Below are positions 2,112 to 45,436 of a stretch of 47,259 bases of DNA, piece by piece. Origin of the DNA: Candidatus Woesearchaeota archaeon (GTDB lineage Archaea > Nanobdellota > Nanobdellia > Woesearchaeales > GW2011-AR9); the NCBI GenBank assembly GCA_016179955.1, contig JACPCD010000006.1:1-47259 (forward strand), given 5' to 3'. Both the position numbers and the translations under genes were made by a program. The notes below the pieces were generated by a model. The model saw only the letters and a list, made by a program, of their open reading frames with translations, did no database searches and was not told the origin of the DNA. Positions within the stretch are counted from its first letter, which is position 1, and each line of letters starts with the position of its first letter.

Positions 2112-2259
2112 GTGGGCGTGCCAGAGTGGTCAAATGGGATGGGCTTAGGGTGTAATGAGCCTGAATTGGCGATGAACAGAAGACACCCATTGGGTTAGTC
2201 CCTACGCAGGTAATCTGGAAAATAATTTTTAGGTCTGCAATCGAATCCTGCCGCCCACA
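2112..2259 (+). tRNA. tRNA-Leu (anticodon TAG) with two introns (2150-2184 at 37/38; 2212-2240 inside the T-loop)
   Basis: The 7-bp acceptor GTGGGCG pairs with CGCCCAC, followed by A73. The D-arm is CCA/TGG with loop GAGTGGTCAAA. The anticodon stem is ATGGG/CCCAT with loop CT-TAG-G[intron]A, and the long variable arm is TGGGTTAGTCCCTAC. The T-stem GCAGG/CCTGC and loop TTCGAAT are reconstituted only after removing 29 nt. TATA-like GATATAAAA lies about 27 nt upstream. Confidence 0.75.
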
Positions 2260-2272
2260 CTTTCACCTAATT

Positions 2273-7779: not shown

Positions 7780-8148
7780 TCATGAAGGAATAGTTAAGGA
7801 GTGAGTGGGAGAATAGTTTCCTACCAAGCGCCGTGAACCATACTGTTCTCTCATGAACGAGAGTACATCGTCCCACTGGTTGAAACAGACCCCATGGGAA
7901 TAATCTGCAGTATAATCTTCTTCCTCAATGATTGGTCTTACTATGTTGCCTCTCTCAAAATCAAGAACGCGGCCTCGCCGTGCCGAGACTTGATATCCAC
8001 AAGTGTCCAAAAGAGCACGCGGAAGCCGCTCGCGAACAATATCTTCTATGGTCTTTCCGGCATCCTCGGCCCCTTTTCCTTCATAAATCAAGACGAATTT
8101 AACAGCTTCAACATATCGCTTAAGCTCCGGTGGGATATATTTATCCAT
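7780..8148 (-). CDS. hypothetical protein
   Basis: ORF with a plausible start MDKYIPPELK at 8148. The longer track start at 8226 lies inside the TATA box of repeat R1. Confidence 0.45.
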   Translation of the reverse strand: MDKYIPPELKRYVEAVKFVLIYEGKGAEDAGKTIEDIVRERLPRALLDTCGYQVSARRGRVLDFERGNIVRPIIEEEDYTADYSHGVCFNQWDDVLSFMREQYGSRRLVGNYSPTHSLTIPS

Positions 8149-32200: not shown

Positions 32201-32859
32201 TGCCCTATAAATTCAGCCCCTCATCGCTCAGTTTATTGAAAGACTGCCCCTGCTGCTTCTGGCTGCATTTCAATAAAAAGATAAAACGGCCCGAGACTAT
32301 TTTTCCCTCACTGCCTTCAGGAATGGATAAAGTCCTCAAAGAGCATTTTGATTATTTTCGCAGGGAAAAGAAATTGCCGCCGGAATTGAAAGAATTAAAG
32401 GGGGTCAGCTTGTTCGATGATGAAGAACTGCTCAAGGTCTGGCAGAATAACCGCAAAGGTATTCAATGGACTGATGCAGATGGAAATGTGTTTCGGGGCG
32501 CCCTGGACATGCTGTTGCAGAAAGGAAAAAAATTGATAGTGCTTGATTTCAAAACCCGGGGCTATCCTACCAAAGAGGACACGCACCTTCACTATAAAGA
32601 CCAGCTTGACATTTACAATTTTCTCTTGCGGAAGAATGGCTATGCCACGGAAGATTATTCTTACCTGCTCTTTTATCATCCGCTGGGCGTTGATGCGGAT
32701 GGCAAGGTGAATTTCCATGCGCATCTGGTGAAGATGGACGTTGAGATCAAGAATGCCGAGCGGATAATTAAAGAGGCATTGAATGTTTTAGCTGGTGAAA
32801 TGCCTCCGACAGCCGAGAAATGCGGATTTTGTGAATGGGCGAAATGTGCTTCCACGTAA
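32200..32859 (+). CDS. PD-(D/E)XK nuclease with Cas4-like Fe-S cysteine set
   Basis: The core has GALD ... VLDFKTRGY (D...DxK). The cysteines are DCPCC near the N-terminus and CGFCEWAKC at the C-terminus. Its start overlaps the dinD-like stop (TAATG). Confidence 0.7.
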   Translation: MPYKFSPSSLSLLKDCPCCFWLHFNKKIKRPETIFPSLPSGMDKVLKEHFDYFRREKKLPPELKELKGVSLFDDEELLKVWQNNRKGIQWTDADGNVFRGALDMLLQKGKKLIVLDFKTRGYPTKEDTHLHYKDQLDIYNFLLRKNGYATEDYSYLLFYHPLGVDADGKVNFHAHLVKMDVEIKNAERIIKEALNVLAGEMPPTAEKCGFCEWAKCAST

Positions 32860-38550: not shown

Positions 38551-39219
38551 ATGACCGAAACACTTAATGCTTTACAATATCTGGTTGATGAGAATCCTAT
38601 TCTTCAACACCCCTTGCTGGTCTCTTTTGCTGATTTACGCAAAAGTCAGGTAAAATCGTGGGCGAGGGAGCAATACTACTTGTCACTTTCATTTGCAGAT
38701 ACACTGGCCATACTTTTTGCCAGAGTTCCCTTTACATACGTTGCCGAAAAAAGACAGTTGGCAGATATGTTTTATACAGAAGTGAGAGGTGGGAATGATC
38801 TTTACTCTCATGAAGCTGAGTTTGCAGCAATGGCCTCATTTTTAGAACTTAATCTGGAGCAGCTGCAACAAGAAAGGCCTAAAACACATACTCAACAATT
38901 TATCGATGACCGGTTAGCTCTATGCTCGCAAAAACCAATTGCACAGAGTTTGGCGGCGATGGCGCTGGGAAATGAGTATCTTAATCTTTCTATTTTTAAA
39001 TCCTATCGTGATGGAATTCCTAAAATATCTGGCTTGGCGAGTTGCCCCTTGGGATATTTTGATGCCCATCTGCGCGATGAATATGATGATTTTAAAATCA
39101 TGGATGCTGCCTTTCAAAAAGTAAGTAGTGGCCTTGATAATGGCGTAGAGCGAGCGGTGAGAAAATTATTAGAAATTAGAACCCACTATTTTGATGCTCT
39201 TTGGGAAGATTTGAAATAA
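38551..39219 (+). CDS. heme-oxygenase-like fold protein (TenA/PqqC-like iron-containing redox enzyme family)
   Basis: All-helical, ~220 aa, with the patterns HPLL..., WAREQYYLS and H/E/D positions typical of this fold. Weak call. Confidence 0.5.
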   Translation: MTETLNALQYLVDENPILQHPLLVSFADLRKSQVKSWAREQYYLSLSFADTLAILFARVPFTYVAEKRQLADMFYTEVRGGNDLYSHEAEFAAMASFLELNLEQLQQERPKTHTQQFIDDRLALCSQKPIAQSLAAMALGNEYLNLSIFKSYRDGIPKISGLASCPLGYFDAHLRDEYDDFKIMDAAFQKVSSGLDNGVERAVRKLLEIRTHYFDALWEDLK

Positions 39220-44980: not shown

Positions 44981-45202
44981 ATTTTTTAGTGTGGTTTTGG
45001 TTTTCTGTTTATTTTTCGGATGTTAATTTATACCTCTTTTTTTTAATTTTCAATAGATTAAAAATAATCTAATATTACGAAATCTTCCTGGAAGACTGGG
45101 GTGTTGCGGCACGTTTAGGGTTTGGGCCAGTTTTTCTTCAATGGTCTTTTCCACTAAATTTTTCCAAAATTTTATAAACTATTATCATTCTGTCTCTGGT
45201 AC

Positions 45203-45371
45203 GCCACGGTGGCACAATCTGGTACTGCGCAGGATTGCTAGGTGCGCTGATGCGAACCACGATGAACATCAGTTCCGCGCAGAGATCCTGTCCCTCTGGG
45301 ATTCCCAGTTCAAATAGGGGCGGTTAAGGCAGTACGCCTTGAACGTCCGTGAGAAAGTCTGGGCCGTGGCG
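45203..45371 (+). tRNA. tRNA-Ser (anticodon GCT) with two introns (45241-45284 at 37/38; 45316-45358 at the T-loop/T-stem junction)
   Basis: The acceptor GCCACGG pairs with CCGTGGC, followed by G73. The D-arm is GCA/TGC with loop AATCTGGTA. The anticodon stem is CAGGA/TCCTG with loop TT-GCT-A[intron]A, and the variable arm is TCCCTCTGGGATT. The T-arm is CCCAG-TTCAAAT-[43 nt]-CTGGG. TATA TTTATAAA at 45171-45178 and a T9 run after the gene. Confidence 0.7.
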
Positions 45372-45436
45372 TTTTTTTTTCTTTTTCATTCAATTCCCTA
45401 TATATTCCCTATAACTATAAACTAGGTAGTGTACTA

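Follow-up and report, generated by a model that had tools for sequence, protein, structure and literature searches.

Positions 45203-45371 (+) of the window, the whole 47,259-nt stretch of DNA that we analyzed, hold what sequence comparisons confirm as a genuine tRNA-Ser(GCU) gene interrupted by two bulge-helix-bulge (BHB) introns. The host is a tiny, uncultured DPANN archaeon of Woesearchaeota type, and its genome (G000; other G numbers denote related genomes used for comparison) is represented by a 954-kb assembly with 44% GC that is ~81% complete and contains archaeal SSU rRNA. The locus reads GCCACGG-TG-GCAC-AATCTGGTA-CTGC-G-CAGGA-TTGCTA-[44 nt]-A-TCCTG-TCCCTCTGGGATT-CCCAG-TTCAAA-[43 nt]-T-CTGGG-CCGTGGC-G, with the following features:

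45170..45178, + strand: TATA-like box TTTTATAAA, read from the sequence; its center is ~29 nt upstream of the tRNA 5′ end
45203..45240, + strand: exon 1, tRNA positions 1-37 (acceptor 5′ strand, D arm, anticodon stem 5′ strand, anticodon GCT, A37), from the ARAGORN cloverleaf after intron removal
45241..45284, + strand: intron 1, 44 nt, canonical position 37/38, strict hBHBh′ motif, from the fold and orthologues
45285..45314, + strand: exon 2, tRNA positions 38-59 (anticodon stem 3′ strand, long variable arm, T stem 5′ strand, T-loop TTCAAA), from ARAGORN after intron removal and orthologues
45315..45357, + strand: intron 2, 43 nt, non-canonical T-loop position 59/60, relaxed BHB motif, from the fold and orthologues
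45358..45371, + strand: exon 3, tRNA positions 60-73 (T60, T stem 3′ strand, acceptor 3′ strand, discriminator G73), from the sequence and ARAGORN after intron removal
45372..45380, + strand: run of nine T immediately 3′ of G73, read from the sequence

CCA is not encoded in the gene. In orthologues, a similar AT box, ...CATTTAAAAAA, lies equally far from the tRNA, and TTTTATAAA is a probable archaeal promoter. T-runs also close the orthologue genes, and the nine-T run is a probable archaeal transcription terminator. A SepF gene (PF04472, 44585-44980) lies immediately upstream of the tRNA gene, and a gene for an rve-type DDE transposase with an N-terminal HTH (PF00665, PF13683, PF13518; 45482-46345, + strand) begins 110 nt past it.

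The original prediction described a perfect 7-bp acceptor stem with G73, and an anticodon arm and a T-arm each split by an insert (CAGGA-TTGCTA[44 nt]A-TCCTG and CCCAG-TTCAAAT[43 nt]-CTGGG). All of this can be read in the sequence, with GCCACGG pairing to CCGTGGC in the acceptor stem. The D stem has 3 bp plus a C13.C22 mismatch, and the variable arm, U-CCC-UCU-GGG-AUU, forms the stem-loop CCC-TCT-GGG. The gene thereby combines the traits of a class II tRNA-Ser (long variable arm, 3-bp D stem, 13-22 mismatch, G73 and GCU anticodon), which are kept in 12/12 orthologues.

Neither ARAGORN nor Rfam at the gathering threshold reported a tRNA in the unspliced window as a whole, and none was found at the unspliced locus by ARAGORN with or without -i or by Rfam at the gathering threshold and at E≤1. 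Upon removal of both inserts, ARAGORN calls an 82-nt class II tRNA-Ser(gct). With the T-loop insert alone removed, it calls the same tRNA-Ser(gct) with a 44-nt anticodon-loop intron; with intron 1 alone removed, it reports nothing. The Rfam tRNA model (RF00005, cut-off 29 bits) scored 40.5-42.1 bits on the three first-read orthologues without intron 2, including 41.0 bits for a near-identical one, a result by which the prediction is not refuted under the covariance-model check it had proposed; the model had no match in the three first-read orthologues with intron 2. As Rfam matches only orthologues without this intron, the T-loop insert alone hides the gene.

The minimum free energy (MFE) fold of the unconstrained 169-nt precursor is a cloverleaf with two lengthened arms (-68.7 kcal/mol). 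Two hairpins that had been noticed in the inserts, CTGATG/CATCAG and AAGGC/GCCTT, are both part of this fold. A third, CTGGG-ATT-CCCAG, which had been put forward as a competing structure, is present at 45296-45308 but plays no part in the MFE fold and is not kept in relatives (G001 reads CTGGG..CCCGG).

Using BLAST across 41 related genomes, we read 12 tRNA-Ser(GCU) genes, G000 included. In 7/12 an insert lies at exactly 59/60, and these inserts comprise at least six unrelated sequences:

G000: 43 nt
G017: 43 nt, homologous to G000
G023: 34 nt
G022: ~75 nt
G016: 22 nt
G011: ~79 nt
G037: ~95 nt
G001, G003, G024, G010 and G009: none; TTCAAAT intact

In the last five genomes the T-loop exons are already joined (CC(C/G)GG-TTCAAAT-CCGG..). 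The 37/38 intron is also absent in G009 and G011. ARAGORN calls all the spliced orthologues tRNA-Ser(gct), and because orthologues exist with and without the insert, the intron boundaries are settled. The claim of a tRNA-Ser(GCT) with two introns therefore holds on the cloverleaf obtained after removal, the BHB motif at both inserts and the orthologues with and without intron 2.

The spliced G000 tRNA differs from that of G001 at two bases, which form one compensatory T-stem pair (A-U vs G-C). Between genera, exons are 85-98% identical and introns 50-71%, and both the T stem and the helices of intron 2 show compensatory changes. The tRNA-Ser(UGA) and tRNA-Ser(CGA) genes of G017 carry near-identical copies of the 43-nt intron at 59/60, placing its homologues in three tRNA-Ser genes of that genome. 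A consensus fold of the four copies (one from G000, three from G017) keeps the architecture, with compensatory changes. We also observed partial direct duplicates of the tRNA 5′ end (GCCACGGTCGCATA + hairpin + TCGCGTCCGCGTCTC) upstream of tRNA-Ser(GCU) in G022:C18 (L143), where they occur twice, and in G010:C4 (L144). The G010 gene is also followed, 47 nt downstream and ahead of the T-run, by a copy of its 3′ end (CCGGTCCGTGGCA).

Splice motifs and the predicted splicing pathway

Archaeal tRNA introns are recognized via the BHB, in which two 3-nt bulges flank a 4-bp helix (PMC5829648, PMC4090602). In the modeled folds, intron 1 has this motif in its strict form and intron 2 in an accepted relaxed form. 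For intron 1, the 5-bp anticodon stem serves as the outer helix h; the central helix H consists of U32.G, U33-A, G34-C and C35-G; the bulges are UA|G and AG|A; and h′ has 3 bp (G-C, U.G, G-C), beyond which lies the inner hairpin CUGAUG/CAUCAG. This strict motif, together with the 44-nt intron that ARAGORN reports in the anticodon loop, agrees with the position 37/38 originally given for the first intron. Intron 1 is shared with G017 and G001, its ends are conserved, and its inner stem covaries as CUGGUU/AACCAG.

For intron 2, h is the 5-bp T stem, and the central helix pairs U54-A, U55-A and C56-G, followed by an A57.A mismatch. The 3′ bulge, AG|U, has 3 nt, and the 5′ site, AA|U, falls within an asymmetric internal loop in G000 and G017. 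An inner helix, GGGCG/CGUCC, and the hairpin UUAAGGC/GCCUUGA follow; the inner helix is one base out of register in G000 and G017. In G023, the inner helix of the 59/60 intron is in perfect register with six pairs, giving a near-perfect hBHBh′. We also considered a different central helix for intron 2, UUCA/UGAG with 5-nt bulges, and rejected it as non-canonical and worse in energy (-22.6 vs -26.1 kcal/mol).

A repeated T lets the boundary of intron 2 slide by one base (T|...T), so that 59/60 and 60/61 are both possible placements, and the mature product is identical in either register. The original prediction had placed it at 60/61, the junction of T-loop and T-stem. In all three genera first examined, BHB geometry is present only in the 59/60 register (45315-45357), so we moved the intron one base 5′. 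Given the 59/60 motif with its offset inner helix, intron 2 is best described as a relaxed BHB of the published hBH kind.

The genome encodes both a splicing endonuclease and an RNA ligase. EndA has 235 aa (C2:1336-2043, - strand; PF01974 at 102.8 bits, PF02778 at 58.6 bits), and RtcB is found at C23:38693-40039 (555.6 bits). Exactly one EndA catalytic domain is present in 25/26 genomes of the family, including 22/22 high-quality ones, and no EndA paralogue was detectable in G000. The sole, weak candidate for a second subunit (C30, E=0.03) lacks an EndA domain in Pfam and was discarded. EndA is closest to the enzymes of M. kandleri, N. equitans (α) and M. jannaschii (α4), and the closest solved subunits include N. 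equitans α (3iey_A). It aligns to the M. jannaschii α4 enzyme without gaps across the catalytic Tyr-His loop, a region with insertions in the N. equitans and ARMAN-2 enzymes; an L3-type insertion in the G000 EndA was not confirmed by the alignment. Judging from its sequence, the enzyme may be α4-like in oligomeric state.

The EndA types shown to cut relaxed or non-canonical motifs are α2β2 with the CSL, ε2 with the ASL and loop-bearing α4. The M. jannaschii α4 EndA has strict specificity and, by published rules, is not expected to cut relaxed motifs. Ahead of its M. jannaschii α4-like core, the G000 EndA has an N-terminal extension of ~40-60 aa that is Lys-rich and apparently disordered and that might contribute RNA binding for relaxed motifs. 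EndA ORFs in the family range in length from 199 to 266 aa.

The rtcB gene itself contains a 30-nt in-frame insert with a TAA stop (C23:~38759-38794), located within the conserved metal-binding MPDxH-WGYG motif, such that it reads ..YCMPDGH|FVGE*SQRDQ|WGYGFPIGG.. The insert shows BHB-like geometry for removal of 30 nt (p=38764, q=38795), with an ambiguous exact junction. The mRNA of the splicing ligase must probably itself be spliced.

We propose the following pathway. A ~170-nt precursor would be transcribed from the upstream TATA box and end at the T-run. Each insert, with its flanking exon, would fold into a BHB: intron 1 (44 nt, 37/38) as a strict hBHBh′ stacked on the anticodon stem, and intron 2 (43 nt, 59/60) as a relaxed motif with the T stem as outer helix and U54-U55-C56(-A57) pairing with the 3′-terminal AGAA of the intron. 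The single α-type EndA of the genome would then cut in the four bulges, RtcB would ligate the three exons, and CCA would be added post-transcriptionally. Both the splicing of the two introns and the order of their removal we infer from sequence.

Introns at position 59/60 and their families

Standard tools recover few tRNA genes from G000: ARAGORN -i finds 11, and Rfam matches 17 loci, 12 of them above the cut-off. We therefore ran a SPLITS-like census over 162 kb of non-ORF DNA, deleting each BHB-like candidate and submitting the result to ARAGORN -i, then going through the procedure once more to catch genes with three introns. The census was run without a local GC filter, since the AT-rich 3′ flank makes such a filter miss tRNA-Ser(GCU). 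At least 15 tRNA genes were recovered only by a 59/60 deletion (Asn, Thr, three Ala, three Ser, His, Gly, Tyr, two Leu, Arg and Cys), and ~7 more with a 59/60 intron need an additional deletion. From these recoveries, ~22 of ~37 tRNA genes of G000 have a 59/60 intron. The earlier suggestion of a lineage-wide feature rather than decay is thereby upheld, and the two-intron arrangement is ordinary for the lineage, in which over half of the tRNA genes have an intron at this T-loop site.

The comparison of intron positions across the tRNAs of the genome, which the prediction had called for, shows 59/60 to be recurrent but not uniform. The other tRNA gene of the window, tRNA-Leu(TAG) at 2112-2260 (+), had been credited with the same two-intron layout. 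It has a 35-nt intron at 37/38, but its second intron (29 nt) is at T54/T55, where the T-stem 5′ strand GCAG pairs with CTGC of the intron as the central helix of an HBh′-type motif. Along with this tRNA-Leu(TAG), the census recovered a tRNA-Met with a T-stem insert and a tRNA-Pro with a D-arm intron. tRNA-Ala(TGC) (C20:19075-19189) has a 42-43-nt T-loop intron at or beside 59/60 and no canonical intron; upstream of it, the SSU rRNA match (C20:16266-17890) spans 1625 nt vs 1478 model positions and may contain an insertion.

Many of these introns share a module, ATAAG-N9-CCCTTATCAACCC, consisting of a 9-bp hairpin, CAACCC and a second, variable hairpin, with ~27 perfect copies in G000. Approximately 14 copies lie in sense orientation exactly at the T-loop position 59/60 of tRNAs of varied isotypes (Asn, Thr, Ala, His, Gly, Cys, Leu and others), and one is the 37/38 intron of tRNA-Met. 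This pattern looks like an intron family spreading among tRNA genes. The module matches no Rfam family. Examples are found at:

C26:31562-31639: copy of the module
C28:10630-10684 (-): copy of the module
C39:33375-33427: copy of the module
C42:13759-13806 (-): copy of the module
C33:8214-8253: copy of the module

Beyond G000, the matches listed place the module in more than 108 stretches of DNA from other genomes (L033-L140). Nearly all of the genomes among these matches are Ca. Woesearchaeota or Nanoarchaeota MAGs; a few are labeled Methanosarcinales, Altiarchaeota, Micrarchaeota or Iainarchaeum, and two are Clostridiales MAGs. Sense T-loop introns account for 6/120 copies in other genomes, again among the matches listed. 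Elsewhere the module is often antisense and adjoins a duplicated tRNA 3′ end that starts at nucleotide 60, and many copies follow ..GGATTCNCAC, which is antisense to a tRNA 3′ end. Other copies in these genomes have conserved flanks of their own, repeated many times per genome.

In G000, related units follow intact tRNA genes: one lies 3′ of tRNA-Pro(CGG) (C42:10812-10895, - strand), and three in tandem lie 3′ of tRNA-Leu(GAG) (C18:~60-330). Each unit comprises an antisense module, GTG(A/G)GAA, a duplicate of the tRNA 3′ end from exactly nucleotide 60 and a T-run. These units could be an integration or recombination footprint at 59/60, or spare 3′ exons. A second homologous family of 59/60 introns, GCCAGTTACACTAGGCG... 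(..GCCAGTTACACTAGGCGAGTCGTA..GTGGGG..CCCCACGA..), ~80-88 nt long, is common to tRNA-Arg(TCT), two other G000 tRNAs and, in another genus, the tRNA-Ser(GCU) of G011 (L015). Its G000 loci are:

C39:31774-31853: copy of the GCCAGTTACACTAGGCG family
C31:~32413-32500 (-): copy of the GCCAGTTACACTAGGCG family
C34:~7967-8046 (-): copy of the GCCAGTTACACTAGGCG family

Function of the locus and origin of intron 2

We consider it very probable that the locus is a functional tRNA-Ser(GCU) gene whose two introns are spliced out by EndA and whose exons are joined by RtcB. AGY codons occur at 21 per 1000 codons in G000 (~36% of serine codons), and neither G000 nor G017, which is rated 100% complete and has the same two-intron gene, yielded a second tRNA-Ser(GCU) gene. 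Counting against this interpretation are the non-canonical motif of intron 2 (the A.A in its central helix and, in G000 and G017, the offset inner helix), the single α-type EndA with its M. jannaschii α4-like Tyr-His loop as the only one found, the stop-bearing 30-nt insert in rtcB, and an assembly that is only ~81% complete.

The same locus could be a decaying pseudogene whose inserts are never removed, with the working tRNA-Ser(GCU) in the unassembled ~19% of the genome. The incompleteness of the assembly, the rejection of the locus by standard tRNA finders and the transposase gene 110 nt downstream speak for this reading. However, the exons are intact and differ from those of the G001 orthologue only by the compensatory pair, both inserts have splice motifs, most tRNA genes of G000 are built alike, and G017, rated 100% complete, has the same two-intron gene and no other GCU gene; we regard decay as extremely unlikely. 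A narrower doubt concerns the cut itself, which might fall at 60/61 or at another nearby phosphate. The one-base slide would yield the same mature tRNA, and ARAGORN accepts a 58/59-type deletion too. Yet at 60/61 neither the outer nor the central helix forms in the three genera tested, which led us to reject that register, and the near-perfect G023 motif, with its six-pair inner helix, is at 59/60. All the other 59/60 inserts terminate in ..GAA-NN|T. A cut elsewhere is unlikely.

Accepting a functional gene leaves room for different accounts of why the introns are there. One intron might be retained because it encodes a small RNA with a function of its own, for instance a C/D-box guide RNA. 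The tRNA-Trp intron of Haloferax carries a C/D-box guide RNA, and intron 1 here has conserved ends and GAUGA-like elements in three genera (CGAUGAA in G000, AGAUGAA in G017, AAUGAUA in G001). However, it is only 44 nt long with a center that is not conserved, it has no clear C and D boxes at the correct spacing, and neither intron matches an Rfam family even at E≤1. We rejected a C/D-box guide RNA in intron 1, as convincing boxes and an Rfam match are both absent, and a small-RNA role for either intron is very unlikely. Intron 2 may instead be primarily a selfish, portable insert that homes into conserved T-loops and is tolerated as spliceable, with no role in the cell, an account of its origin that is compatible with a functional gene. 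Near-identical 43-nt copies sit in three different tRNA-Ser genes of G017, the 7/12 occupied orthologues hold at least six unrelated sequences, and ~14 G000 tRNAs of differing isotypes share one 59/60 module. On the other hand, no mobility enzyme is linked to the intron, an empty/filled-site polymorphism within one species was not seen, and the three G017 copies, all being in similar serine tRNA genes, are explicable by gene conversion. We judge the chance of a selfish origin to fall slightly short of even.

Returning to the functional gene, we tentatively hypothesize that in Woesearchaeota the T-loop position 59/60 serves as a universal docking site at which portable introns settle, all of them processed by one M. 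jannaschii-like α-type EndA, although the odds seem to us somewhat below one half. With about the same reserve, this hypothesis would cover an EndA without the known broad-specificity loops and would make intron 2 of tRNA-Ser(GCU) one passenger among others. As the outer helix (T stem) and the 5′ strand of the central helix (U54-U55-C56-R57) are supplied by sequence that hardly varies among tRNAs, an insert ending in YGAA-NN would be spliceable from any tRNA. If so, intron families such as the ATAAG-N9-CCCTTATCAACCC module could pass from one tRNA gene to an unrelated one. Among the tRNA-Ser(GCU) orthologues, genes with no, one or two introns make up a compact natural series, in which a single site holds at least six unrelated inserts. 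Such a series can be used to study the gain and loss of archaeal tRNA introns and to test a plain α4-like EndA on relaxed T-loop motifs, which specificity rules do not predict it to cut.

Relation to known systems

Multi-intron tRNA genes of Thermoproteales were reportedly found with SPLITS/SPLITSX in the work of Sugahara et al. in 2007 and 2008 and of Marck and Grosjean in 2003. Archaeal tRNA genes with multiple introns, relaxed BHB motifs and introns at position 59/60 have already been published (PMC4090602). As in Thermoproteales, the genes described here combine BHB introns at 37/38 with introns at non-canonical sites, have relaxed motifs (hBH/HBh′) and are missed by standard tRNA finders (PMC4090602). 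They differ in their host, which belongs to DPANN/Woesearchaeota and not to TACK, in the dominance of 59/60 over the many scattered sites of Thermoproteales, and in a single α-type EndA in place of an α2β2 enzyme with the crenarchaeal loop. According to the part of PMC4090602 that cites Fujishima 2010, similar introns are common to several tRNA genes in Thermoproteales. Near-same introns across isotypes within one genome are likewise seen here, in the ATAAG-N9-CCCTTATCAACCC module and the three-copy intron of G017; unlike in Thermoproteales, nearly all copies are at 59/60, and the module is also found outside introns and in many Woesearchaeota/Nanoarchaeota MAGs.

Within DPANN, disrupted tRNA genes are known alongside α4(L3) or ε2 EndA (Fujishima et al. 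2011, PMC3239211; Kaneta et al. 2018, PMC5829648). Kaneta et al. associate L3-loop α4-type EndAs in DPANN with heavy tRNA disruption and take incomplete tRNA sets to indicate undetected disrupted genes (PMC5829648). Our host is of the same superphylum, and one Woesearchaeota genome was included in their set (PMC5829648). Both papers give tRNAscan-SE counts, and the present gene and the 59/60 preference do not appear in them (PMC3239211, PMC5829648). Because standard tools find only 11-17 of an estimated ≥37 tRNA genes here, DPANN genomes are liable to be wrongly scored as lacking essential tRNAs.

The split tRNAs of N. equitans, a DPANN relative, are joined from halves at BHB-like motifs by EndA and a ligase. 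In contrast, the tRNA-Ser(GCU) gene is contiguous and would be cis-spliced, without separate halves. This two-intron gene adds one example to the published class of multiple-intron archaeal tRNA genes.
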